Origin: Patescibacteria group bacterium
GTDB lineage: Bacteria > Patescibacteriota > Minisyncoccia > Phycocordibacterales > Phycocordibacteraceae
Length of the DNA: 64,000 nt
NCBI GenBank assembly: GCA_040390125.1
Contig: JAZJYZ010000001.1
Span: 70,428-134,427, forward strand
Reading direction: 5' to 3'
The notes under the pieces were generated by a model. That model was not told the origin of the DNA. It searched no databases and saw only the letters and a program-made list of their open reading frames with translations. Below, one piece after another: positions 1,291-39,567 of this stretch; positions within the stretch are counted from its first letter, which is position 1; each line of letters starts with the position of its first letter. The translations under genes and the position numbers were made by a program.

Positions 1291-1795
1291 AACACACTTC
1301 GTTGCCTATGTTGCGACATCCATAGATGGACGTATTTCACTTGAAAAAAGAAAGCTTCCTGATTGGACGAGCAAGGAGGATTGGAAATTCTTTCAGCGTG
1401 AACTCGCGAAAGCGGATGCCGTAGTGACAGGAAGAAACACATACCTATCTGCTGAGGGTCGCCTTAAAAAGCGTACGACTTTTGTATTGTCGAGCAGAGT
1501 AAAAAATACTCTCAAAAAAGGCACAGTGACCTTCATCAATCCAGCACACCAGAACCTTAAAAAACTCTTTTCAGAATATAAAACCGTCGCCATAGTTGGA
1601 GGTGCACGAGTGTATCAAGCAATGCTCGACAACAATCTACTCCATGATCTCTATGTAACTATTGAACCATTAGTGTTCGGGAGAGGAACCCCAATGTTTT
1701 CTGATGGACTACAAACAAAACGGTTTGAACTTGTCTCGGTAAAAAAACTAAACACGAAGAGCACTATTCTTCTTCACTACCGCATTAAAAAGTAA
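1262..1795 (+). CDS. RibD C-terminal domain / dihydrofolate-reductase-like reductase
   Basis: The motif YVATSIDGRIS...DW(T)S.ED...F..L...DAVVTGRNTY is typical of the RibD_C/DHFR-like family. I chose the internal Met start (MKSKSQ..) because the longer ORF (1199) overlaps the upstream gene. Confidence 0.55.
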   Translation: MKSKSQPLSKTHFVAYVATSIDGRISLEKRKLPDWTSKEDWKFFQRELAKADAVVTGRNTYLSAEGRLKKRTTFVLSSRVKNTLKKGTVTFINPAHQNLKKLFSEYKTVAIVGGARVYQAMLDNNLLHDLYVTIEPLVFGRGTPMFSDGLQTKRFELVSVKKLNTKSTILLHYRIKK

Positions 1796-4829: not shown

Positions 4830-5927
4830 TCACCATAGTACTTGGCGGTTTCCACGAAGTGCGAGACCGATTGCGGTTGCGTATTCCAACGATTCAGAAA
4901 ATTCCATCGGCGGTACGTAGCTATCGAGTGGGAAAGCATTCGTCCATACGTCTGCAATCGTCACAGGCACATTCAAAAATGTCTCAAGATATTCAGCGAT
5001 GCCACGTAAATTTGTACCGCCCCCCGAGAGGATCACCTTCTCTACAGGGAGTCTGGTTACATCGTCTGCAGATGGCGCATTCCAGTAGGAAAAATGTTTC
5101 ACTATTTCATCTTTCATAACTGACACTGTCGTCATGAGTGTTTCTACTAAGTCGGCATTTTGTGTACTCATCACAAAACCTTTTTCATTTTTCATCTTCT
5201 CGGCATCTACGCCAGAGATGCTGAATTTTTTCATGATGACACCCGTGAGTGCTTCGCTCCCCATGTCTACACTTGCCGTGAACGACACAACGCCTGCGTC
5301 CGCAATAGCAATGCGCGTGGAGTATCTCCCCAGGTCAATAATCATGATGGTGCGTGACAAATCCTCCGCACGTAACACTGAGCGAGCGAGTGCTTGTGAC
5401 TCCACTTCTATGGCACGAAGTATCACACCTGCAGATCGGAAGACAGAGGAATATTCTTCTATCATACGCTTCGCATATGCTGTGACGGATACAATGGTGC
5501 CGGCCTGGATACGCCGTACAATCTCGAAGTCAAAAAGCACCTCTCCTGGCGGCAGTGGCACATGAGCCTCGAGTCCAGATTCAACCCCGGCACGAAGATT
5601 TGTCACATTCTCTGGTATAAGCGCCTGGTAAAGATAGGCTTTTTGTTCGGGAATACTTGCCATTGCGTTTCGCACATGATGGCGAAGCCGATAGGAACGC
5701 AGAACATCAATAACTTTTTCTGGCTGTTCGATCTCACCCTCAACAACAATATCTTTTTGAAGCGGTGTTTCTTCACATGTTCGAACCTCTAAGCCAAGTG
5801 CGGTTGATTTCAAAGAAACACATTTTATAGAATTACTAGAAATATCAACCCCCGCAGCCGGCATGGCAATTACTGAGGGAGGTGGAAACATCGCAAGTAT
5901 GCGTTTCTGAAATGACATGCTTCTCAT
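4830..5927 (-). CDS. pilM: Type IV pilus assembly protein PilM (actin-like ATPase fold)
   Basis: 365 aa. The motif GVDISSNSIKCVSL resembles the PilM phosphate-1 motif, and the size and position upstream of pilN fit. Confidence 0.65.
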   Translation of the reverse strand: MRSMSFQKRILAMFPPPSVIAMPAAGVDISSNSIKCVSLKSTALGLEVRTCEETPLQKDIVVEGEIEQPEKVIDVLRSYRLRHHVRNAMASIPEQKAYLYQALIPENVTNLRAGVESGLEAHVPLPPGEVLFDFEIVRRIQAGTIVSVTAYAKRMIEEYSSVFRSAGVILRAIEVESQALARSVLRAEDLSRTIMIIDLGRYSTRIAIADAGVVSFTASVDMGSEALTGVIMKKFSISGVDAEKMKNEKGFVMSTQNADLVETLMTTVSVMKDEIVKHFSYWNAPSADDVTRLPVEKVILSGGGTNLRGIAEYLETFLNVPVTIADVWTNAFPLDSYVPPMEFSESLEYATAIGLALRGNRQVLW

Positions 5928-14022: not shown

Positions 14023-14112
14023 AGTGTTCGCAGGCTACCATGAGTGGATTCAAGATTCAAGATTCACGAGCTAAAACTGTCCACTGTACACTCTTCGCTG
14101 TACACTATTCTC

Positions 14113-14685
14113 ATGATTGGCTCTTTAGACGGCACTGTGCGGGGGATAATCCGTGACAGCATCATTCTTGAAATAAACGGGGTTGGCTACCGTGTGGCGG
14201 TACCAATACCAACGCTCACAGGCGCAAAAGAAAACGACCATCTGTTCCTCTGGACACATATGGCAGTGCGGGAAACTGCCCAAGATCTCTACGGATTTGA
14301 AACACAAAACGAATTGTCGTGGTTTGAGCTACTCCTCAGTGTTTCGGGTATAGGCCCTAAATCAGCACTGAACATCATGAATACGGTTGATACTAAATCT
14401 TTAGAAAGTGCGATTGGTAGAAATGATGCAGGTATGCTCTCAAAATCGTTTGGAATCGGAAAGAAAACTGCAGAAAAAATAGTACTGGAACTTCGAGAGA
14501 AGGTTGGCTCCATTCAAGACAAAGGAACCGAAAGCGGGTCTGATGGTGATGTGGTTGATGCACTCGTAGGCTTGGGATATTCACTTCGTGAAGCTAGGGA
14601 CGCCGTACATGCGGTTTCCAAAGATCTGGTAACGCCGGAAGCACGCTTACGCGGTGCAATTCGCATTGCATCACGCTCTCGCTAA
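14113..14685 (+). CDS. ruvA: Holliday-junction DNA helicase RuvA
   Basis: MIGSLDGTVRGI...INGVGYRV...VRETAQDLYGF...LLSVSGIGPKSALNIM...GIGKKTAEKIVLEL are the canonical RuvA domain I/II/HhH motifs. I chose the internal Met start. Confidence 0.85.
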   Translation: MIGSLDGTVRGIIRDSIILEINGVGYRVAVPIPTLTGAKENDHLFLWTHMAVRETAQDLYGFETQNELSWFELLLSVSGIGPKSALNIMNTVDTKSLESAIGRNDAGMLSKSFGIGKKTAEKIVLELREKVGSIQDKGTESGSDGDVVDALVGLGYSLREARDAVHAVSKDLVTPEARLRGAIRIASRSR

Positions 14686-24477: not shown

Positions 24478-25509
24478 ATGTCAAGGGCACAACCATTACG
24501 GAACGATTCAGAAGACGACGCACCCAAAGAGGCCGGCGAGCGTGTTTTAGATCAGACACTTCGCCCGGAAGCATGGGAAGAATATGTCGGACAGGAAAAT
24601 GTAAAAGAAAATCTACGTGTGCTCATAGCAGCAGCAAGAGAAAGAAACCACGCCCCCGAACACACACTCCTTTATGGTCCTCCTGGTCTTGGAAAAACTA
24701 CACTTGCACATTTGATGGCAAAAGAGCTCGGTGCAAACATGCGTGCAACGGCAGGTCCCGTTATAGAGCGTGTGGGTGATCTTGCTGCGATTCTTACAAA
24801 CCTCGAGCCAGGTGATGTGCTTTTTATCGACGAGATACATAGACTCAACAAAACTATTGAGGAAGTTTTGTATCCTGCAATGGAAGCAGGTAAGCTCGAC
24901 ATTATTATCGGCAAAGGCCCCTCAGCTCGCACCATAGAGCTCGCCCTCCCCTCTTTCACGCTCGTAGGCGCAACAACAAGAATTGGACTCATCTCGGCAC
25001 CACTGCGCTCACGCTTCTCAGGCGGAGTATTCCAACTTGATTTTTATTCTGAAAAAGAAATCGAGAGAATCCTTGCCCGCTCTGCACAAATTCTAGGAAT
25101 TGAAGCTGACGCAGATGCACTTCAGGAAATTGCAAAACGTTCACGTAAAACACCACGCACCGCAAACTATCTTTTAAAAAGAAGCCGTGATGTTGCACAG
25201 CTTGATAGAACGGCACTCTCAAAAGTAGCAGCAGAAAAAGCGCTCGCCATGATTGGTATTGATACTGCCGGCCTCACCCCTTCCGACAGGCGAATCCTTG
25301 AAGCCCTTATAACGAAATTCGGCGGAGGGCCCGTGGGCGTAAAGACACTCGCAGCGGCAGCAGCTGAGGACGAGCAAACAATCGAGGATGTGTATGAGCC
25401 GTACTTAATGCAAGAGGGATTCTTGGAACGCACACCTCGTGGGCGTATTGTTACTGCTAGAGCTCGAGAGCATTTAGGGAAAGGAGGTGCGCAAAAAAAA
25501 CTTATATGA
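24478..25509 (+). CDS. ruvB: Holliday-junction branch-migration helicase RuvB
   Basis: 343 aa with [19 protein letters not shown]...[14 protein letters not shown]...[10 protein letters not shown]. Confidence 0.9.
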
Positions 25510-25838
25510 GTTTACTTTCAGACAAATTAAAGGCTTGGGTAAAAAATCAGGAGGCAATTATTTGGCAAGCCCAGAAGAAAGAGCGTGGTGATGCATCACA
25601 CCTACTTGCCTACACAGTAAAACTTGGGGAAGAAGTTGGAGAACTTGCAGAACAGGTATTGGCTCGGTTTGGGTATCAAAGAAAGTCAAAAGTGCTTGCA
25701 CAAGGAGACGATGAACTTGCTGACGAATGTGCCGATGTCATTATCGTGTCACTCTTTCTCGCAGAAGCTGCGGGTATTGATGTAGAAAAAGCGCTGGAGA
25801 GAAAAATGGAGAAGCTAGAAAAACGGAACCGTGAATAA
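25506..25838 (+). CDS. MazG-like nucleotide pyrophosphohydrolase (small single-domain)
   Basis: 110 aa with the EEVGELAE...[10 protein letters not shown] pattern of the MazG/NTP-PPase fold. There is a 4-nt overlap with ruvB. Confidence 0.55.
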
Positions 25839-26033
25839 TCAATCGTCTTCCTTTATCCAGCCCAAAGCGTTTGCTACATCTCTCGGCACTATTCCAGAAC
25901 CGTTACAGGTGGAGCAACTCTCCTCTTTCATACCAGAGCGTCTTCCATAGAAGCCCGGGCGCACTTTGCTGCAACCCTCCGCCATGCAACGTAACGCTCT
26001 ATTTTCAAAACGTAAGTGAGGCTCTCCAAGCAT
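25839..26033 (-). CDS. Small zinc-ribbon-like protein with a CxxCxGxG motif, hypothetical
   Basis: 64 aa containing RCMAEGCSKV...ESCSTCNGSG. Confidence 0.3.
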   Translation of the reverse strand: MLGEPHLRFENRALRCMAEGCSKVRPGFYGRRSGMKEESCSTCNGSGIVPRDVANALGWIKEDD

Positions 26034-26572
26034 CTGAAGAAGATATCATTTTTAGGCTGACTAACTTGAGTTTTTTAGAAAAACTATTGTTTTTATCAAC
26101 CTTTGTTACATTCATAACAAAACCTCTCTACTATTTGAGATAAATCTCTGTCATTGATCAGGATTCGGTTGACGTCCTGTTCCGCCACACCAAACACAGT
26201 CCCCTCCTTTGCCGCCACACATCCAGCATTGTTCCTCCGGGAGAATGTGCGAGCGTCTTTCGTTATTCAAGAACATAAATATTTGTCCCCTCTATATTCC
26301 TGTAATGTCGACCTGTTACTTCCTGCTCAGGCTGTATTGAAGTAGGCCGTGTCTCCGACGTGTACGTCAGAGAACGTGGCCGCCCCCCTAATCGCCCGGC
26401 ATTGCTAATGAGAACATCGAGAATGGACGGTTGTTCTGATGGGTGTTCGTAGTTCATATTGTTTTTTTATTTATTACCACTACTAATATTTAAAGTGTGC
26501 CGGCATGAAGGAATAAAGTTAATTTCTTTGCGAAGGTTATTGATTTTTAACAAATTATGTTACATTTAAAAC

Positions 26573-27214
26573 ATGTTAAGTATTCCTGAAGCCGTACAGC
26601 AAGCTACGGAGAAGGATGGATTTCTTCATTTCGGACTCTCGAATGGAGTGTTAAACCTTTCTAAAACAGCACGTTTCATAAAACCGCTCATTGAGGTTCG
26701 TACGAAAAAAAGCGTGAGCGTGGCGGCTATCACTATGGCGCTTTCACGCCTTAAAACATTAAAAAAGAGAACTAATGTTCAATTGAAACAAGTAAAACTT
26801 GATTCAATAAATATCACAAAAAATCTTGCGGAAATTACATTCGAAAGAACCTCACACAATATTGCTGCACTTGAAAAAGTAGAGAAAGAAGTGCGTAGTA
26901 AGAACGGGTATATCGTCATAACGTTCGGCACTACTGAACTTACCATCATCGTCGAGGAAAATTTTCTTCCGAGTATTAAAAAAATCATGCCCGCAAGCCC
27001 GAAAGTAATACTGCCAGGACTTGTTGCCGTAGGGGCACAATTTAATGAAAATTATATTGCTCACGTCGGAATGGTATACGCACTGATACAGCAACTCACC
27101 TTTCAAAACATTAACGTAGTTGAATTCTCCTCAACATATACGGAACTCGTTTTTTACCTCAATAAGAAAGATATGAAGCTCGCATTTGATACGCTGTACG
27201 AGCAATTCATGTAA
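26573..27214 (+). CDS. Hypothetical protein
   Basis: 213 aa with no recognised motif. Confidence 0.4.
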   Translation: MLSIPEAVQQATEKDGFLHFGLSNGVLNLSKTARFIKPLIEVRTKKSVSVAAITMALSRLKTLKKRTNVQLKQVKLDSINITKNLAEITFERTSHNIAALEKVEKEVRSKNGYIVITFGTTELTIIVEENFLPSIKKIMPASPKVILPGLVAVGAQFNENYIAHVGMVYALIQQLTFQNINVVEFSSTYTELVFYLNKKDMKLAFDTLYEQFM

Positions 27215-27220
27215 ATATTC

Positions 27221-27736
27221 ATGTCCTCCCTAAAAGCTGAAAGCCAAAAGCTAAAAGCCTCTGTCATCGCTGTCGACCCTGGTTACGATCGGGTGGGCAT
27301 TGCGGTAATGGAAGGAAGCGCCCTCATTCACTCTGAATGCTTCACTCCTGAGAAGGGCGCCGTATCGTTGCGCTTAGGTGCAGTGTTTCAACACGTGAAT
27401 GCTGTTATAAAAAAATACGCCCCTGACGCACTCGCAATAGAGACTCTCTTTTTCACTAAGAACCAAAAGACCGCAATACACGTAGCTGAAGCTCGGGGCG
27501 TGATAACCCTCGCCGGGGTGGAGGCGGGCATCCCTGTGTTTGAATATTCTCCTCAAGAGGTGAAAATCGCAGTATCAGGATCAGGCAATGCAAGCAAAAA
27601 GGGCGTCATCAGAATGGTGGAGATGTTGGTGCCAATGGGTCATAAAAAGCGTCATGACGACGAATACGACGCCATAGCATTAGCTATAGCTCATCAATCG
27701 AGTGCAAAATTCAGGCAGGCTCGCAGTGGAAAATAA
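27221..27736 (+). CDS. ruvC: Crossover-junction endodeoxyribonuclease RuvC (with a short N-terminal extension)
   Basis: VIAVDPGYDRVGIAV...ALAIETLFF...AIALAIAH. The first 14 codons (MSSLKAESQKLKAS) are encoded by the aaagctgaaagc-type oligo-repeat. Confidence 0.8.
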   Translation: MSSLKAESQKLKASVIAVDPGYDRVGIAVMEGSALIHSECFTPEKGAVSLRLGAVFQHVNAVIKKYAPDALAIETLFFTKNQKTAIHVAEARGVITLAGVEAGIPVFEYSPQEVKIAVSGSGNASKKGVIRMVEMLVPMGHKKRHDDEYDAIALAIAHQSSAKFRQARSGK

Positions 27737-27994: not shown

Positions 27995-28135
27995 ATGCTG
28001 AGCGATTCTAAGAAAAAGAAAGGTTTTGAGGACGAGGAGCTGGAAGATACGCTTGTGTCTCCTCCGGCGGAAGAAGATTTACTCGATGAGGAGGAAGAGG
28101 AAGACACCTTCGGAGACGAAGACGACATGATGTAA
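27995..28135 (+). CDS. Small highly acidic protein (46 aa), hypothetical, not in the ORF track
   Basis: MLSDSKKKKGFEDEELEDTLVSPPAEEDLLDEEEEEDTFGDEDDMM, followed immediately by a plus-strand terminator. Confidence 0.3.
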   Translation: MLSDSKKKKGFEDEELEDTLVSPPAEEDLLDEEEEEDTFGDEDDMM

Positions 28136-32025: not shown

Positions 32026-33126
32026 CTAACGATTCATCGGCATCACAAGGTAGGTGAACCCCTTTCCTTGGCTATCGGTCATAACCATTGGTTTCCCGGC
32101 GCCCGCCACAGAAAAAGTAACACTATCCCCCGCAACGATTGAGAGTGCATCAATGATGTATTTTGCATTAAAGTTTATATCGATATCCTCGCCGGTGAGC
32201 ACTGCGGGAATATGATCAACCGTCTCCCCCACTGACGCATTAACCGCACGAACCGTAAAAGTCTTCTCTGAGGGTTTAAGAGAAATGTGGACCTGATTAA
32301 ATGAGTCAGTGAATATGGATACTTTGCGAAACGCACGTATAGCATCCTCTTTGAGACAGGTTGCGGACGCAACGTAATCTCGAGGAATAATCGCATGATA
32401 GTCAGGAAAGGCACCATCAATAGTTCTTGAAGTAATGTGCCCAAAATCAGAAATAAATGAGCACTGATTATCCCCCACACGTACTTCAACCTCAGACCCA
32501 AACTCAATCGCTCGCAGGATATCAAGAACATTCCGAGCAGGAATCAATACCGAACCAAAAGAACTTTTTGTTTTGATGGGTATTTTTACCTCAGCAAGAC
32601 GAAATGAGTCGGTAGCCACCGCAACCAATTCCCCTTTTTCTAAAGTAAGAGAAATACTTGAGAGCTCAGGCTTAACGCTCGACACTGATGCAGAAAATGA
32701 AACCGACTTTAGTGCACCAATAAACTCACGGACTGGTAATACAGTAGACGTACCCACACCCTCCTTTACATACGGCAGTGTAGGAAATTCCGATGGATCG
32801 ACTAACGTAATTGATGTAGTCCCCCTATCCCCATCAATAATAAGATTATTACCTGATGTTTTTAAAATTAATTTCTGATCAGTAAGTGCTGAAACTGTTT
32901 GCGACAAGATATGTGCAGGGACAGCAATAACCCCATCCTGACTCGTCTTTGCTTTAAGTACCACCTCAACACTCAAATCAAGATTGGTGGCACGAAGAAC
33001 AGCCCTCCCACCTTCAACTACTATCAAAACACAACCAAATACTGGAAGTGAGAGACTTTTATTACTCACCTTAGAGGCAATACCAACAGCCCTCTCTAAA
33101 TTCTCTCTTAATATCTCAATTTTCAT
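32026..33126 (-). CDS. dnaN: DNA polymerase III beta sliding clamp
   Basis: 366 aa, three-domain size, with MKIEILRENLERAVGIASKVS...LPVFGCVLI. Confidence 0.85.
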   Translation of the reverse strand: MKIEILRENLERAVGIASKVSNKSLSLPVFGCVLIVVEGGRAVLRATNLDLSVEVVLKAKTSQDGVIAVPAHILSQTVSALTDQKLILKTSGNNLIIDGDRGTTSITLVDPSEFPTLPYVKEGVGTSTVLPVREFIGALKSVSFSASVSSVKPELSSISLTLEKGELVAVATDSFRLAEVKIPIKTKSSFGSVLIPARNVLDILRAIEFGSEVEVRVGDNQCSFISDFGHITSRTIDGAFPDYHAIIPRDYVASATCLKEDAIRAFRKVSIFTDSFNQVHISLKPSEKTFTVRAVNASVGETVDHIPAVLTGEDIDINFNAKYIIDALSIVAGDSVTFSVAGAGKPMVMTDSQGKGFTYLVMPMNR

Positions 33127-33358: not shown

Positions 33359-34705
33359 TCATTTCAACATCCCACGAATTTCCTCTATTTGGGTTTTTAA
33401 ATCACCATCAGTAATGATTCCTCCACGAACTTTTTCACATGCATGAATAACAGTTGTGTGATCTCGCCCACCAAAAACAGTCCCTATAGCTGGATACGAT
33501 AGATGAAAATCTTCCCGGAGTATGTACATCATTATTTGACGAGGACGAACCACCTCTCTGCGTCTTGTTTTTGCATACATACTCGCCTCATCGATGTTAT
33601 AGAATTCAGCAATTCTTGAAATAACATGCTTTACAGACACAATACGTTTAGGTCTGGCGGTATTTTTTATAAGATCTTTTATTTGATCTTCTCCTAGTAT
33701 TCCCTTGAGTTGTATTTGGCAAAGAATAGTATTTAACATACCCTCTATTTCACGGATGTTTCCTGGCACCGCCATAGAAAGGCTCTCTATAGCCGTATCT
33801 GAGAGGTTGAGGTTCATTGATTCAGCTTTCGTTTTAATGATTGCCATTCTGGACTCATGGTCAGGTTCATTTATGGCGACAGCCATCCCCGCTACAAAAC
33901 GAGACTTGAGACGTTCCGTTATGTCAGGGATGAGGTTTGGGTGTTTATCGCTTGAGCAAACGATTTGCTTGTTCGCATCGTGGAGTGTATTGAAAAGGTG
34001 GAAAAATTCTTCTTGGATCGTCCCCTTTTTCGAAAAGAACTGTATGTCGTCGATTATAAGAACGTCATACGAGCGATATTTCTCTTTAAATGAAGGGATA
34101 CTGCGGTTATTGATGGCGTTCATGAACTCAAACCCAAATCTCTCAGCAGTAAGATAGAACACTTTCTTTGATGGGTAGGCTTTTTTTATCTGATTACCCA
34201 CCGCTTGAGTGAGATGCGTTTTCCCGCGTCCTGTTTCTCCGTATACGAAGAGTGGGTTGTAGGCAATACCGGGATTTTTAACAACCACTTGACCTGCAGT
34301 GAAGGCGAGCTCATTAAAAGGCCCCACGACGAAGGTATCGAAGGTGTAGCGTGGATTAAGATTGTCTGAGCGGTTGATGTAGTAGTCGGACAAAGGAAGC
34401 TCTGATTCGGTTCGAGTTTCTACGATGACCTTTTCTGGTGCTCTTTTAGGGCTTTCTTTTGAAACGATATATTCGACGCCACGAAGTGTGTCAACAAAGC
34501 CACGGATGGTCTTTAAAACGAGTTTTCCGAAGCGTTCAGATATCCATTCTTTCGTCAGTTGGTTGGGAACCCCGACAAACACAACCCCGTCTTCTATCCG
34601 TACAATGTGAGTTTCGCCGAACCACATCTTGAAACTCGCAGGAGATATTGAAAGCTCTATGTTCGTAAGCGTATTTTCCCAGAGTTGTTTTGTGTCAAGT
34701 TCCAT
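33359..34705 (-). CDS. dnaA: Chromosomal replication initiator DnaA
   Basis: 448 aa. Walker A GETGRGKTHL, IIDDIQF, and a C-terminal DNA-binding helix (...VFGGRDHTTVIHA). Confidence 0.9.
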   Translation of the reverse strand: MELDTKQLWENTLTNIELSISPASFKMWFGETHIVRIEDGVVFVGVPNQLTKEWISERFGKLVLKTIRGFVDTLRGVEYIVSKESPKRAPEKVIVETRTESELPLSDYYINRSDNLNPRYTFDTFVVGPFNELAFTAGQVVVKNPGIAYNPLFVYGETGRGKTHLTQAVGNQIKKAYPSKKVFYLTAERFGFEFMNAINNRSIPSFKEKYRSYDVLIIDDIQFFSKKGTIQEEFFHLFNTLHDANKQIVCSSDKHPNLIPDITERLKSRFVAGMAVAINEPDHESRMAIIKTKAESMNLNLSDTAIESLSMAVPGNIREIEGMLNTILCQIQLKGILGEDQIKDLIKNTARPKRIVSVKHVISRIAEFYNIDEASMYAKTRRREVVRPRQIMMYILREDFHLSYPAIGTVFGGRDHTTVIHACEKVRGGIITDGDLKTQIEEIRGMLK

Positions 34706-34820
34706 GCAAAAGTATTGTGAGTTCAGCTATTATACCTGTGTGGAGAAAACGGCAAACTTGCGGAAAAGCCCCGCTCATGTTAATAAACTGTGAGATACTT
34801 GTGTATAACAGTTCACTTCA
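34706..34820. promoter_or_regulatory. dnaA upstream / rpmH divergent region with DnaA-box-like sites (candidate oriC part)
   Basis: tgtggagaa (34737-34745) and tgtgtataa (34800-34808) resemble TGTGGATAA. Confidence 0.4.
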
Positions 34821-34976
34821 ATGAAAAGAACATACCAACCTAAAAAAAGAAAGAGAGCTACAACCCACGGCTTCTTGGTCCGCACAGCAACTACCTCTGG
34901 CAGGAAGGTTTTGAAGAATCGTCGTCGCAAAGGCCGTGCAAAACTCACTGTTCAAAGCAAGAAAAAGGGAAAATAG
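34821..34976 (+). CDS. rpmH: 50S ribosomal protein L34
   Basis: 51 aa: [44 protein letters not shown].... It is not in the ORF track because it is under 60 aa. Confidence 0.85.
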
Positions 34977-35052
34977 TGTTTAGGGTGTAGGGAAAGAAGT
35001 TTATTTTTCATGCTTCCCTAGTGGCTATACCCTAGTGGCTACCCCCTAATCT

Positions 35053-35367
35053 ATGTTGTCGAAAAAAGAGCGCGTTTCAAGGCTCACATTCCAAAAGCGA
35101 CCTGTACGTACAGGTCGCTTTATATATGGCTCTATAAAAGGGTTTGAGGGAGATCCTGCTGGGGCCGTTGTCGTTTCAAAAAAAGTCTGCCGTACGGCTC
35201 CAGCACGAAATAAGCTTAGACGAAGGATTTACAATATTCTCCGTCCTCTCATCCGCACCAAGGCACTTCAAGGTAACGTTATCGTGTATCCAAATGCACT
35301 GGCTATGAAGGCTCCGTTTCAAGAGCTGAAGAAAGAACTGGAGAAGCGTTTAGGGGTTAGCGTTTAG
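35053..35367 (+). CDS. rnpA: RNase P protein component
   Basis: 104 aa. LSKKERV...RNKLRRRI... is basic and RnpA-like, and its position after rpmH fits. Confidence 0.75.
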   Translation: MLSKKERVSRLTFQKRPVRTGRFIYGSIKGFEGDPAGAVVVSKKVCRTAPARNKLRRRIYNILRPLIRTKALQGNVIVYPNALAMKAPFQELKKELEKRLGVSV

Positions 35368-35450
35368 GGGCTAGTGTTGACAGAAAGGTAAAAAATATAG
35401 AACCCTACTTCGCTAAACGCTAAACACTAGCCCCTAACCCCTCTCCTGCG
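35368..35450. repeat. Oligo-repeat spacer forming an inverted repeat (ggggttagcgtttaggggctagtgtt ... aacactagcccctaacccct)
   Basis: Seen directly. It contains the ctaaacgctaaac word shared with other junctions. Confidence 0.55.
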
Positions 35451-35465
35451 TTATGATGCCTTGAA

Positions 35466-36200
35466 ATGGCATCTTTTTTTCATACAGCGGTATATCAGCC
35501 AATCTATAACGCACTCGCATTCATTATAGGTATTGTGCCGGGAGGCGACATAGGTGTCGCCATTATAGTTATTACCATTTTGGTGCGTTTTGTTCTGTTC
35601 CCTCTTTCCCTTACGGCAATAAAAACGCAAATCTCGATGCGTGCCATTGAACCGCAATTGAAGGCACTGAGAGATGAGCTGAAAGATAACAAGGAAGAGC
35701 TGGCACGCCGTACCATGGCACTTTTTAAAGAAAATAATATTAATCCGTTTGCAAGCTTCCTTTTGATACTGATCCAACTTCCTATAATTATTGGCTTGTA
35801 TTTAGTGCTTCAAAGTGAGACTAAGGTCGTATCGTTTGATCCAAGCGTACTCTACTCATTTGTGCACGCCCCCGAACAAGCGTCACTCCTATTTCTTGGT
35901 CTTATGGACCTTACGGGCAAAAGTATCCTCTTGGCACTCTTGGTCGCAGTCACCCAATTCATCTATGCCCGCCTCATGACCCCCGTGGCTCCTCCAAAAA
36001 ATACTTCAGGAAAACCTGCTTCTTTTCAAGATGATTTGGCAAGGAGTATGCATCTTCAAATGAGATATGTCTTCCCTGCGGTTATTGGCTTTGTCGCATA
36101 CGCCGCATCCTCAGCCATCGCACTCTACTTCCTTGTCGGTAACCTTTTCAGTATTGGACAGGAAATACTTATACGACGTATGCATCATGGAAAAAGATAA
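35466..36200 (+). CDS. yidC: Membrane protein insertase YidC (short form)
   Basis: 244 aa with 5 TM helices and a YidC/Oxa1-like core. It sits in the conserved rnpA-yidC-jag order. Confidence 0.75.
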   Translation: MASFFHTAVYQPIYNALAFIIGIVPGGDIGVAIIVITILVRFVLFPLSLTAIKTQISMRAIEPQLKALRDELKDNKEELARRTMALFKENNINPFASFLLILIQLPIIIGLYLVLQSETKVVSFDPSVLYSFVHAPEQASLLFLGLMDLTGKSILLALLVAVTQFIYARLMTPVAPPKNTSGKPASFQDDLARSMHLQMRYVFPAVIGFVAYAASSAIALYFLVGNLFSIGQEILIRRMHHGKR

Positions 36201-36668: not shown

Positions 36669-37886
36669 CTACTCGTCTCGAGTGAGGTCGAGCGACCATA
36701 AAGTGAGGTCGTTTTTATTCATGAATGTGACGTATTTTTGATCAGGAGAAATCACTGGGTTTATTAGATCAACTGGTGTGCCTGCTATTTCTTCAAGATG
36801 TCCTAATGACTGAGCTGTGCTTTCAAGGGGACGAATAATCCATGCGGAGTCATTGCGGGCAATTTTTCCTAAGAGCCAGTCGTCAGGAAGTGCAATGCTA
36901 CCTGCCATGAGAGGATCTGAAACCCCGCAGAATACAAGAGGAGCTTCCTCGGAAATCCACGCACACTTTGTTGCAAGCGTTCCCAAAGGCGATGCATAGG
37001 TTTGTCCGGTTTTAGTATCCACCATTCCCAAAGTAGTGCGAATGCCTACACCACTGCTATAAAGCACGTAACGCCCTCCCGGGCTTGGTAGTGCGAGTAG
37101 CCCCGGTACGTCACCTATAATTTTTGTCAGAGTGCCATTGGTTTTGATTTCATATAAAAACCCAGAGATTCCGGAGGATGGTGCACTTGCTATAAAGAAA
37201 CGCTCTCCGCCAGCTAAGGGTACCCATGAGCGAATGGGAGACAATAGAACTGTTCGAGGTTTAGCTCCATCAGGTTGCATGAGCTCTATGTGTGAACCGC
37301 CCGAGGTTTCGCTCACGGTAAGCATGGTTAATCCGCTTTTTGCCACTGCAGAACGCTTGAATCCTTTGAGCGGAAGCGTATACACGGACTGCTGAGAACT
37401 TGTTGCATTTAAAACCGCGAACGCATTAACGATTGTTTCTGTGTCGGGCAATGTACGGAGTAGCAGTGTGGAATCGGTAATCGCAATCAAATCTTGTATT
37501 AGGGGGATGGTGGTGTTGGAGAGTCGTACTTCTGTGTATGAGTCTACTGGTGTTTCAAATATATGTCCCGTCGCTCTTTCCATGAAGCGAATGTGCGAAG
37601 GAGTGGTGGTACTCGCTTCCGAGGCAAACCATGATCCTGCCGTTGGGCGACTGCTCACTTGGCGGAGGCGTGTAAGTACTTTTTGTACGGAAACTTCTTC
37701 GGTGCTCCCTTCAGGTGTTTTTGTTGCAGGAGTTCCAGCTCCGAATGGGAAAAATGCACTGAAAAAATCTCTTGGTGCTGGGGTGCCGCCATTCGGTGTT
37801 TTTTGGGCAGTGAAAAAAAAGTACCCCGAAACTAAGACAATGCCGAAGAGAAAGAGAACGACAATGAGGATGAGACGTCTATTCAT
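36669..37886 (-). CDS. Secreted beta-propeller (TolB/PD40-like) protein, hypothetical
   Basis: 405 aa with an N-terminal TM/signal and PD40-like segments (SPGGRYVLYSS, SPDQKYVTFMN). Confidence 0.45.
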   Translation of the reverse strand: MNRRLILIVVLFLFGIVLVSGYFFFTAQKTPNGGTPAPRDFFSAFFPFGAGTPATKTPEGSTEEVSVQKVLTRLRQVSSRPTAGSWFASEASTTTPSHIRFMERATGHIFETPVDSYTEVRLSNTTIPLIQDLIAITDSTLLLRTLPDTETIVNAFAVLNATSSQQSVYTLPLKGFKRSAVAKSGLTMLTVSETSGGSHIELMQPDGAKPRTVLLSPIRSWVPLAGGERFFIASAPSSGISGFLYEIKTNGTLTKIIGDVPGLLALPSPGGRYVLYSSGVGIRTTLGMVDTKTGQTYASPLGTLATKCAWISEEAPLVFCGVSDPLMAGSIALPDDWLLGKIARNDSAWIIRPLESTAQSLGHLEEIAGTPVDLINPVISPDQKYVTFMNKNDLTLWSLDLTRDE

Positions 37887-37898
37887 AGAAGCTCAAAG

Positions 37899-38597
37899 TT
37901 ATTTAGGGAGGGCACAGCACTGGTACCCTTCCGCAAGAGCCGGGCAACACTGGTTGTTTATTCTGGAGTAACCGACATCCATGAGTCGTTCACACGAGGC
38001 CCCGGTGGGCACAGCTCGAGGATTCTTAAATTGCGTACACGCCACCGTTACTTCCGCAGCTTGGGACACTGTTGGAACGGTACAGATAATAACAGACTCA
38101 TTTTTTGTAGCAGTTCCACCTTGCTTTTTGCAGTCTGCTTCGCTCGTTGCAGGAATTGTCGTTCGAGCGTCACTTTCAAAACTGCCCAGCATCGTTAAAT
38201 CTTTGGTAAGTGCATCCAGGTTAAGAATATTGGGGTTAATCACGTGCAAAATTACATATGCCAAGAGAAGCAGGATAAGACCCATCGCCGCACCCTGCAG
38301 GCCCTCCATCGCAGCCTGCTTTTTACCGACGACATCTGATGCCATGTATTTGAATCCGTCGAACGTAATCATGATGACCCCAAGGATTGCCGCAATGGCA
38401 ATCGTGAGCCCAAACACCGCATTCAGGTAGCTGGTGAGCGAGGTGCTGGAATCAACGGCACCACTTCCAGTTGGGAGTGGCACTGAGACGATTGGTTGAA
38501 ACTGAAATTGCGGAGCTTTGTCTGCCGCTAGTGCAGGAGTTATTCCTCCGAGGAGTGAAGCGAAGAGAAATGCGAGGGTTATGAGTATGCGGGACAT
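37899..38597 (-). CDS. VirB2/TrbC-like pilin candidate with a Cys-rich C-terminal extension
   Basis: Signal peptide (...ITPALAADKA), then two hydrophobic helices separated by a short loop (LTIAIAAILGVIMITF / AAMGLILLLLAYVILHVI), then a tail with 8 Cys. I chose the internal Met start, which gives a 4-nt-type overlap with the upstream gene. Confidence 0.4.
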   Translation of the reverse strand: MSRILITLAFLFASLLGGITPALAADKAPQFQFQPIVSVPLPTGSGAVDSSTSLTSYLNAVFGLTIAIAAILGVIMITFDGFKYMASDVVGKKQAAMEGLQGAAMGLILLLLAYVILHVINPNILNLDALTKDLTMLGSFESDARTTIPATSEADCKKQGGTATKNESVIICTVPTVSQAAEVTVACTQFKNPRAVPTGASCERLMDVGYSRINNQCCPALAEGYQCCALPK

Positions 38598-38598
38598 A

Positions 38599-39567
38599 TT
38601 AAAATGTAAGTTGGAATGATGTGTTTGCATGTTCTAAGAATTTTTTTATGTTTTCAAAAGATACACGCACCGTGTGTGCGCCACTTCCAGTTCCAACTTT
38701 TCTAAATGTTGCACTCTGTGGCTTTGTTGGATCGACAGTAAAGGGCACCGTGTCGAGAGTCCATGTGTATGATACGTCACCGGTGTTCTCTATGGAAAGA
38801 GGGTACGCAACAAATGATACTTCGTCTCCAGTTAGTGGAAACAATGCTGTGTGTGCCTTATCAAATCGCACGCCAAGTAGTGGCGCATCCTCGTATATAA
38901 CCAGAGATGGCGTTTGAGGCTGCACCGTGAGCGACTGCTCGCCAGCAATGGAGCCGTCTTGCGTGCTCACCACAACGGAGACAGTGAATGCGCCTCCGAA
39001 GCTGGGGGCTGTGACCACCGCACTCCATTTACCGTACCCAGATTGCTTTTGCAAAGGTACGTTATTTACTTTCCATGAATATACCAATGCGTTTGAAGGG
39101 GCCTCAGCTCCGTTTATTACCAAATGCGGTATAGCCATGAGTGTAACGGAACTGTGACCATTGGGGAGTGGGCGTCCGATGTAAAGAGCTGGCGTGTATG
39201 TGTTCCCTTCCCAGAGGATATCGACTGACGCTGGTCGAATAATGGTTATGCCGTCCGCTCGAGCGGAGTTGTTTTCGACCGCAATAACACGAATGGTTTC
39301 CGTCGTGCCCAAGCCATCGAGAATAATGGCAATTGAGGTGTGGTCAATTCCTTGGTCAACAACCTCACCGTTCAGACTCCATACGTATGCGGTGGTACCT
39401 ACTTCCCTGCCTGGATCAGAGACCGTCAATGTAACCTGGCTTCCTGGTCGTGGGTGTGCAGGGTTCACCCCTATTTCGAGCTCGGAGCTGAACGTTGGCA
39501 GAATTTCCGCCGAAGCGAAGACTGGAGCCAGGAATAGTAAAGAAAGCGCAAATGTCGCCCGAAGCAT
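38599..39567 (-). CDS. Secreted beta-rich protein, hypothetical (T4SS-like cluster)
   Basis: 322 aa with an N-terminal signal peptide (MLRATFALSLLFLAPVFASA). Confidence 0.45.
   Translation of the reverse strand: MLRATFALSLLFLAPVFASAEILPTFSSELEIGVNPAHPRPGSQVTLTVSDPGREVGTTAYVWSLNGEVVDQGIDHTSIAIILDGLGTTETIRVIAVENNSARADGITIIRPASVDILWEGNTYTPALYIGRPLPNGHSSVTLMAIPHLVINGAEAPSNALVYSWKVNNVPLQKQSGYGKWSAVVTAPSFGGAFTVSVVVSTQDGSIAGEQSLTVQPQTPSLVIYEDAPLLGVRFDKAHTALFPLTGDEVSFVAYPLSIENTGDVSYTWTLDTVPFTVDPTKPQSATFRKVGTGSGAHTVRVSFENIKKFLEHANTSFQLTF

Follow-up and report, generated by a model that had tools for sequence, protein, structure and literature searches.

A gap between ruvB-mazG and ruvC genes of a Candidatus Paceibacterota bacterium probably holds three small, lineage-restricted protein genes, two of them with zinc-finger-type cysteine motifs

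The genomes of the Candidate Phyla Radiation (CPR, or Patescibacteria) are tiny, a large share of their genes has no known function, and small proteins are routinely missed by annotation. What, then, is contained in a 734-nt gap between two conserved genes of such a genome? The gap studied here (positions 25839-26572) belongs to a stretch of 64 kb, hereafter the window, from a Candidatus Paceibacterota (CPR/Patescibacteria) bacterium. An earlier note on this DNA had described three small minus-strand open reading frames (ORFs) in the gap, and all three were recovered with the coordinates and sequences given there: ORF1 (25839-26033), ORF2 (26151-26276), and ORF3 (26263-26457). The CxxCxGxG motif, said to occur in both cysteine-rich ORFs, was likewise confirmed, twice in ORF2 (CWMCGGKG and CVWCGGTG) and once in ORF1 (CSTCNGSG). 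All three matches in the six-frame translation of the window fall within the gap and none elsewhere, whereas shuffled windows contained 0.32 +/- 0.53 matches, with a maximum of 2. The gap is probably not empty, and is neither a pseudogene nor an RNA gene but a set of three small minus-strand protein genes arranged in two units.

The comparison set comprised three related Paceibacterota lineages and seven related contigs, the only ones found. Lineage A is the window; lineage B (L004, which is the same contig as L005, and L010) has a gap of 699 nt, and lineage C (L003, which is the same contig as L009, L006, L007, and L008) a gap of 448 nt. Genome and metagenome scans with the 213-aa protein encoded to the right of the gap both returned one and the same contig of a metagenome-assembled genome (MAG). 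Proteins of the flanking genes are 85-95% identical across lineages (RuvC about 81%), and the proportion of synonymous differences (pS) in these genes amounts to 0.54-0.77. Their synonymous sites are thus saturated, so that any sequence which is still similar is held by selection. In addition, an independent Logan assembly (L001/L002) is 100% identical to the window across the gap, indicating that the frame offset between ORF3 and ORF2 is not an assembly or sequencing error.

ORF2 (minus strand; 41 aa, MFLNNERRSHILPEEQCWMCGGKGGDCVWCGGTGRQPNPDQ) is a real coding gene under strong purifying selection. It carries its two CxxCxGxG motifs 2 residues apart, and all four cysteines fall in a span of 14 residues (Cx2C-x6-Cx2C), where they would form one Zn(Cys)4 knuckle. 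The gene is present at the same offset in 7/7 related contigs. Compared with lineages B and C, its pS values (0.59 and 0.71) resemble those of the flanking ruvB, mazG-like, and 213-aa genes, while the proportion of nonsynonymous differences (pN) is only 0.03 and 0.05, which gives pN/pS ratios of 0.05-0.07 (Fisher p 1.5e-9 and 2.2e-11). Substitutions at codon positions 1/2/3 number 0/3/13 and 2/2/16, a clear third-position bias. Residues 12-30 (LPEEQCWMCGGKGGDCVWC) are invariant across lineages, as are the cysteines and glycines of the motifs in the three lineages with the exception of one glycine (G31, replaced by D or N), and purifying selection spans the whole ORF, N-terminus included. ORF2 is as constrained as RuvB, and this is what identifies it as a genuine protein-coding gene. 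Its homologues in an index of 5.8 billion proteins form a single cluster (P0001, 90% identity, 41 aa).

Immediately upstream lies ORF3 (minus strand; 64 aa, MNYEHPSEQPSILDVLISNAGRLGGRPRSLTYTSETRPTSIQPEQEVTGRHYRNIEGTNIYVLE), the first gene of the ORF3-ORF2 pair. The protein is free of cysteine and rich in proline, arginine, and glutamate, with an invariant AGRLGGRPR stretch. Its frame is the only one that is open over the full span in all lineages, always with the same length, and the geometry of ORF3 and ORF2 is identical and devoid of indels in the 7 contigs of the 3 lineages. The pN/pS ratios of ORF3 are 0.26-0.29 (p 0.005 and 9e-5), and its substitutions at the three codon positions against lineage C number 10/5/19. 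ORF3 was also called as a gene in the Logan assemblies. From these substitution patterns we read ORF3 as coding. When 1.84 billion representatives were searched exhaustively with HMMER, the only protein returned besides its own cluster was a metagenomic one of 339 aa (P0003). This protein consists of six identical 52-aa repeats, whose segment IPGIQDILLSTSSRLLGNSRNTRY is 44% identical to ORF3 residues 8-32, at a summed E-value of 1e-6 for all repeats. P0003 is probably a translated tandem DNA repeat and was discarded as a relative, the match being a probable repeat artefact due to chance.

The 3' end of ORF3 overlaps the start of ORF2 in a different frame, ending 14 nt past the ORF2 ATG. The 14-nt overlap is 100% identical across lineages, with 88-94% identity over the adjoining 64 nt of ORF3. 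At this junction (26261-26307, minus strand), RNAalifold and RNAfold predicted an mRNA hairpin whose loop contains GAGGGG and whose stem includes the ORF2 AUG, a candidate translational-coupling element. The hairpin segment is 88-100% identical across lineages, and the predicted energies are -13.0 kcal/mol in the window (z -4.3), -17.9 in L004 of lineage B (z -6.0), and -8.7 in L003 of lineage C (z -1.4). The predicted structure fits translational coupling of ORF3 and ORF2, with support from conservation and not from covariation.

ORF1 (minus strand; 64 aa, MLGEPHLRFENRALRCMAEGCSKVRPGFYGRRSGMKEESCSTCNGSGIVPRDVANALGWIKEDD) shows a different evolutionary behaviour, that of a fast-evolving accessory gene for a putative Cys4 zinc ribbon (Cx4C-x18-CxxCxGSG). 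In lineage B (L004 and L010), the same position is occupied by an allele of 49 aa (MQFGFVEAFDNRATRCKLNCRKVAPGFYGTKKNGILTACGGCGGSGYSS). The two alleles share 20/49 amino acids (41%; BLASTP E=5e-8), and their DNA is essentially unalignable (41%). They have in common the start position, NRA.RC, the second cysteine, KV.PGFYG, and CxxCxGSG, thus retaining all four cysteines in a pattern that over both alleles reads Cx3-4C...CxxCxGSG. The nonsynonymous divergence (dN) of ORF1 is approximately 0.8, compared with 0.03-0.16 in its neighbours (6-25x). The gene and its upstream block are cleanly absent from lineage C (L003, L006, L007, and L008), where 26 nt separate the stops of ORF2 and the mazG-like gene and where ORF2 and ORF3 are unaffected; ORF1 is therefore found in 2/3 lineages. 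Word-index protein searches and searches of viral contigs detected no ORF1 homologues beyond lineages A and B. The similarity between ORF1 and ORF2 is restricted to EExCxxCxGxG (pairwise E 0.006), which would agree with an old duplication without proving one.

A putative extended -10 element of ORF1 (TGaTATCTT, 26040-26048, minus strand) ends 6 nt before the ATG, which would imply a leaderless mRNA if the element acts as a promoter. The L004 allele has TATTCT 7 nt before its ATG, even though its DNA cannot be aligned with that of the window. This layout is widespread in the window: among its 55 ORFs of at least 150 aa, 14 have a TANNNT hexamer ending 6-8 nt before the ATG (2.1 expected), several of them with the extended TG, and only 5 have a Shine-Dalgarno motif. 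A scan of 1.6 kb around the gap for consensus sigma-70 promoters and intrinsic terminators found zero sites. On these counts, the genome uses a leaderless-type layout unlike consensus sigma-70. Given the -10-like hexamer at both alleles and the window-wide pattern, ORF1 has the appearance of an ordinary leaderless gene of this genome. A further ORF of 36 aa that overlaps the ORF1 start (26005-26115, minus strand), with an SD-like AGAGAGG upstream, was rejected as probably spurious, since its ATG is ATA in L004 and is not conserved.

The coding status of the genes, the purifying selection acting on them, and their presence or absence across lineages come directly from this comparison. What they encode is, in our judgement, likely to be a set of lineage-restricted, small Cys4 zinc-binding proteins: a coupled ORF3-ORF2 pair and a fast-evolving, accessory, paralogue-like ORF1. 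A family of small zinc-ribbon proteins was one of three explanations offered in the earlier note, and it is the one that agrees with the strong purification of ORF2 and with the retention in ORF1 of the four cysteines, PGFYG, and GSG across about 59% nucleotide divergence. The other two, a degraded larger gene and precursor peptides, are disfavoured by the comparisons described below. The first unit would be the ORF3-ORF2 pair, probably translated in a coupled way, in which the ribosome finishing ORF3 would open the hairpin that holds the ORF2 start codon. The gene layout suggests that both proteins are made together and probably act together. The second unit would be ORF1, an accessory gene with its own leaderless-type promoter. 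By analogy with DnaJ, anti-TRAP, and the cysimiditides, ORF2 and ORF1 may each fold round one Zn2+ by means of their four cysteines, and they would be small, rigid, metal-stabilised binding modules rather than enzymes.

Several observations weigh against this interpretation or limit it. The comparison involves only 3 lineages, all of them close (85-93% amino acid identity in the neighbouring gene). Modelling of ORF1 and ORF2 with AlphaFold2 was uninformative, at a predicted local distance difference test (pLDDT) score of about 52. In lineage C the junction hairpin is weak, and it shows no compensatory changes; moreover, this genome rarely uses Shine-Dalgarno motifs, so that the GAGGGG preceding ORF2 may be incidental. 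Within ORF3, an antisense frame of 30 codons (26360-26449) has a similar pN/pS, whereas the substitution patterns of the other antisense ORFs are not coding-like. Above all, the pS values of ORF3 (0.19 and 0.38) are well below those of the flanking genes (0.59 and 0.73; p 3.5e-7 and 1.2e-5), a restraint not seen at the synonymous sites of ORF2. Both the synonymous sites of ORF3 and the two flanking non-coding blocks are conserved beyond what coding explains, and part of the signal may thus come from an RNA or DNA element. The conservation of these blocks (85-90%) despite saturated synonymous sites is the main loose end of the analysis.

An extension of the favoured reading would give the ORF3-ORF2 pair a target. 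ORF3 and ORF2 might form a small nucleic-acid-binding complex, with a GRPR-type basic arm and a Trp-bearing zinc knuckle, that acts on the flanking AT-rich regions and regulates its own genes and/or the operon of the 213-aa gene and ruvC. The invariant GGRPR of ORF3 is reminiscent of minor-groove "GRPR" arms, and in size the Trp-bearing knuckle of ORF2 recalls nucleocapsid knuckles. The PDB matches are non-significant (E 2-5). This is the function that we would favour for the pair, but we regard it as speculative and, on balance, unlikely.

The conserved blocks are also the starting point of the rival explanation that survives best, namely that the ORF3 region and the intergenic blocks are mainly a functional RNA or DNA element. 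On the minus strand this could be a dual-function RNA or the leader of an mRNA; alternatively, a transcript that is antisense or forms a 5' leader could start from TGTTACATT on the plus strand. The ORF3 peptide would then be secondary or not made at all, and ORF2 (and ORF1) would be the only true proteins. The restrained synonymous divergence of ORF3 speaks for this explanation, and so do two intergenic blocks. The first, at 26458-26572, is the 115-nt control region from which ORF3 (minus strand) and the 213-aa gene (plus strand) diverge; it is AT-rich (24% GC) and 85-86% identical in both lineage comparisons. It contains a putative extended -10 element of the 213-aa gene, read as such from the leaderless pattern (TGtTACATT, 26558-26566, plus strand, ending 6 nt before the ATG). 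The second is a 73-nt non-coding block lying between the stop of ORF2 and the putative promoter of ORF1 (26068-26140), which is 90% identical between the window and L004, whereas the adjacent ORF1 region is 32-41% identical. A 30-nt direct repeat that contains TGTTA-N6-WAACA is shared by the two blocks: copy A (26544-26573) also provides the putative extended -10 just mentioned, and copy B (26090-26119) has the motif as the palindrome TGTTA-N6-TAACA (26104-26119). Because no further copies occur in the 64 kb, this repeat was rejected as a general promoter motif, and the significance of the local alignment between the copies is modest (z about 2.8). Copy B resembles the promoter of the 213-aa gene: its TGTTACATT at 26104-26112 (plus strand) reads as an extended -10 identical to that of this gene, and could be an antisense promoter. 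This sequence faces the antisense strand of ORF2 and ORF3, has no ATG downstream, and occurs in lineages A and B only.

Other observations do not favour an RNA or DNA element as the main content of the region. Copy B is missing together with ORF1 from lineage C, yet ORF3 and the intergenic region are conserved there. Folding of the whole region is unremarkable (plus strand, z -1.0; minus strand, z -2.05), although a single compensatory pair (U-A to A-U) in a long-range helix of the plus strand speaks for an element. In agreement with the earlier note, in which no signature of RNase P, tmRNA, or SRP RNA had been recognised by eye, Rfam 15 gave no match in the gap at the gathering threshold on either strand; at E<=10 only three chance matches to eukaryotic snoRNAs (13-17 bits) were obtained, and a tRNA/tmRNA scan detected none in the gap. 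Finally, the pN/pS of ORF3, its third-position bias, the lack of indels, and its being the only fully open frame are features of a coding sequence. An element of this kind as the principal explanation is decidedly unlikely.

Protein and nucleic-acid constraints could also be superimposed in a compact, lineage-specific regulatory device. An aromatic-bearing, all-Cys knuckle of 14 residues (CWMC...CVWC), formally reminiscent of retroviral nucleocapsid knuckles in having an aromatic residue in each CxxC, would be co-translated with a GRPR partner from an mRNA that is itself under strong purifying selection, as are the two flanking blocks of 70-115 nt. The result would be either a new small protein pair, with nucleic-acid-binding or chaperone activity, or an RNA of dual function, in control of itself and the neighbouring ruvC operon, with ORF1 as a rapidly diversifying paralogue. 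This possibility seems to us improbable.

A miniature conflict system appears quite improbable. In that case, ORF3 and ORF2 would pair in the manner of a toxin and its antitoxin, and ORF1 would be a rapidly evolving part engaged in an arms race, such as a factor directed by an episymbiotic CPR cell against phages or its host. Two small, co-directional, overlapping genes do lie behind a control region with a palindrome (TGTTA-N6-WAACA, about 100 nt upstream of ORF3), which might suggest a type II toxin-antitoxin module, but the palindrome also covers the -10 and the ATG belonging to the divergent gene; the high dN and presence/absence polymorphism of ORF1 and the possible antisense promoter facing ORF2 and ORF3 would also be in keeping with conflict. 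Nevertheless, no similarity to toxin or antitoxin families was found in Pfam, NCBIfam, or PADLOC, nor was there any match in PHROGs, and searches of viral contigs and phage genomes with the three ORFs returned no relatives. In size the proteins fall below typical type II modules, and they lack the hydrophobicity of type I toxins; the locus lies among core housekeeping genes with no marks of mobile elements.

The cysteine-rich ORFs might instead be precursors of peptides made on the ribosome and modified after translation (RiPPs), either cysimiditide-like Zn-tetracysteine peptides or ranthipeptides/sactipeptides, an idea raised in general form by the earlier note. Cysimiditide precursors contain two CXXCXGXG motifs anchoring a Zn-tetracysteine hairpin, and an Asp lies between them; the spacer is of 14-22 residues with Asp-Gly, an adjacent gene for a PIMT-like methyltransferase is obligatory, and the family is known only from Actinomycetota (bioRxiv 10.1101/2024.10.02.616296). 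ORF1 and ORF2 are short and Cys-rich, and ORF2 has the hallmark of two such motifs with a conserved Asp between them, but its spacer has only 2 residues (G-D) and the Asp is followed by Cys and not by Gly. Among the neighbours that could be identified within about +/-10 kb, the only methyltransferase is a SpoU rRNA methylase about 8.5 kb away, and genes for maturation or transport (PIMT-type methyltransferase, radical-SAM, lanthionine synthetase, YcaO, protease, and ABC exporter genes) were not seen. There is no leader or signal sequence, no precursor family of NCBIfam or Pfam was matched, and selection over the whole of ORF2 includes the N-terminus. A precursor role is therefore very improbable. 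As for a single larger gene degraded by frameshifts and stops, which might be suspected from the overlap of ORF3 and ORF2 in different frames and from ORF1 and ORF2 sharing the same frame, it is hardly credible: the fragments do not tile any longer protein (HMMER for ORF3, word-index searches for ORF1 and ORF2), the same split, with the same lengths and frames and pN/pS well below 1, recurs in 3 lineages despite saturated synonymous sites, ORF2 is selected as strongly as RuvB, the independent assembly excludes a sequencing frameshift, and ORF1 is cleanly missing from one lineage while ORF2 and ORF3 are unaffected. Thus, the lack of a longer homologue, of Rfam or family matches, and of a maturase or methyltransferase nearby disfavours the pseudogene, structured-RNA, and precursor readings alike.

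Some statements of the earlier note about the composition and annotation of the region need correction. The gap had been called GC-richer, and the opposite was found: the GC content of its 734 nt is 42.8%, below the 45.6% mean of the window, and falls in the 11th percentile of segments of the same size. ORF1 (50.3%) and ORF2 (51.6%) reach only the 86th-88th percentile, and the two spacers are AT-rich (24-28%). Mildly GC-rich ORF1 and ORF2 with AT-rich spacers are as expected of short genes parted by intergenic DNA. The supposedly repeated gccgccacac occurs as an exact 10-mer only once (26211), although the 9-mer CCGCCACAC occurs twice (26182 and 26212); this repetition arises because it is the reverse complement of the W/M-C-G-G codons in the two motifs of ORF2. 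The description of the region as unannotated holds for ORF1 and ORF2 of this genome, for which exact-protein look-ups gave no record. It does not hold for ORF3: the exact-protein look-up was also negative, yet the protein is recorded from both NCBI and Logan, the latter with a gene call. Overall, the ORFs and motifs described in that note were borne out and no Rfam family matched, while the claim about GC content failed.

The gap sits in core housekeeping territory near the replication origin. The protein encoded next to it is a 100% match to MES2134723.1 ("Patescibacteria group bacterium") and has 93% identity to a protein of a Candidatus Paceibacterota MAG. To the left lie ruvB (24478-25509, plus strand) and, overlapping its end, the mazG-like gene (25506-25838, plus strand). 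To the right, the 213-aa orphan gene (26573-27214, plus strand) is followed after a 6-nt spacer by ruvC (27221-27736, plus strand). The 213-aa protein, annotated as hypothetical and 85-93% conserved across the 3 lineages, has weak similarity to ACT/aspartate-kinase C-terminal domains (E 0.001-0.02); its assignment as RuvA was rejected because RuvA maps to 14044-14685. Further neighbours include RuvA, a Mur ligase, SpoU, PolA, TsaE, a PilB-like ATPase, a class-I tRNA synthetase, a penicillin-binding protein, DnaN, and DnaA, and no mobile-element or biosynthetic genes were seen among the neighbours identified. The positions of dnaN (32026-33126, minus strand), dnaA (33359-34705, minus strand), and yidC (35466-36200, plus strand) indicate that the chromosomal origin region is about 8 kb from the gap, and oriC may sit in the spacer between dnaA and yidC (34706-35465).

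Two further observations were made in this neighbourhood. Just 3' of ruvC (27995-28135, plus strand) there is an unrecognised small gene for an extremely acidic protein of 46-47 aa (MLSDSKKKKGFEDEELEDTLVSPPAEEDLLDEEEEEDTFGDEDDMM), which is kept in 3/3 lineages (KKxKGFEDEE...DDDDMM). Its counterparts lie at 5246-5389 (plus strand) in L004, 1685-1936 (minus strand) in L003, and 1487-1690 (minus strand) in L007, with inconsistent lengths from the gene callers (47-83 aa). A T4SS-pilin-like protein is encoded at 37899-38630 (minus strand), within 36669-39567 (minus strand). The two large ORFs beside it, at 36669-37886 (405 aa) and 38599-39567 (322 aa), had no Pfam match at E<=1e-5.

With a 41-aa peptide that carries two CxxCxGxG motifs and is selected as strongly as RuvB, a well-founded family of small, putatively zinc-binding proteins is added to this phylum, and ORF2 becomes a concrete target for biochemistry. 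The abnormal nucleotide conservation of ORF3 and the flanking spacers, together with the leaderless signature, may help to understand gene control in uncultivated CPR bacteria. The practical impact is limited, the family being confined to a few close lineages.

Judged by sequence similarity, ORF1, ORF2, and ORF3 belong to no described family. Searches of Pfam, NCBIfam, PHROGs, PADLOC, and PDB sequences with all three ORFs yielded only sub-threshold matches to the DnaJ motif. In DnaJ, two CxxCxGxG units hold one Zn2+ through four cysteines, and the four units of its Cys-rich domain bind two zinc ions. ORF2, with two units, and ORF1, with one unit plus Cx4C, contain the same building block. However, the DnaJ units lie between the J-domain and the C-terminal domains, whereas ORF1 and ORF2 are stand-alone proteins of 41-64 aa that lack a J-domain, and the units of ORF2 are only 2 residues apart. 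The score of ORF1 against the DnaJ Cys-rich domain (PF00684) is 16.7 bits (E 0.0089), below the gathering cut-off of 32.7, and ORF2 had no match to this model at E<=1; scores against the NCBIfam DnaJ models are 13-16 bits, with cut-offs of 377-556. By these scores, the resemblance to DnaJ is at the motif level only, and neither protein is a member of PF00684.

A similar layout is offered by anti-TRAP (RtpA) of Bacillus, a stand-alone, 53-aa zinc-binding regulator whose fold depends on a Cys4 site with CxxCxGxG and which, as an oligomer, binds a partner protein and is non-catalytic. ORF1 has the same arrangement of a Cys pair, a spacer, CxxCxGxG, and a short C-terminal tail. Nevertheless, ORF1 and ORF2 had no Pfam match to anti-TRAP at E<=1, no anti-TRAP chain was among their PDB matches at E<=10, and the locus has no TRAP or trp context and belongs to another phylum. 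Zinc-finger micro-proteins of prokaryotes, for example the haloarchaeal C(P)XCG proteins such as Brz (PMC2253796, PMC10117724), have at most 70 aa and two Cys pairs; many are lineage-restricted and located in intergenic gaps that annotation misses, and some of them regulate neighbouring genes. The haloarchaeal proteins differ from those described here in motif (C(P)XCG and not CxxCxGxG) and in domain of life, and there is no sequence relationship. As a kind, however, the small prokaryotic zinc-finger proteins accommodate both ORF2 (41 aa) and ORF1 (49-64 aa), which do not exceed 70 aa and carry two conserved Cys pairs, all four cysteines of each being invariant among the available homologues. 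The finding is in this respect sound but modest: new, narrowly distributed small genes of zinc-finger type, partly missed by annotation.

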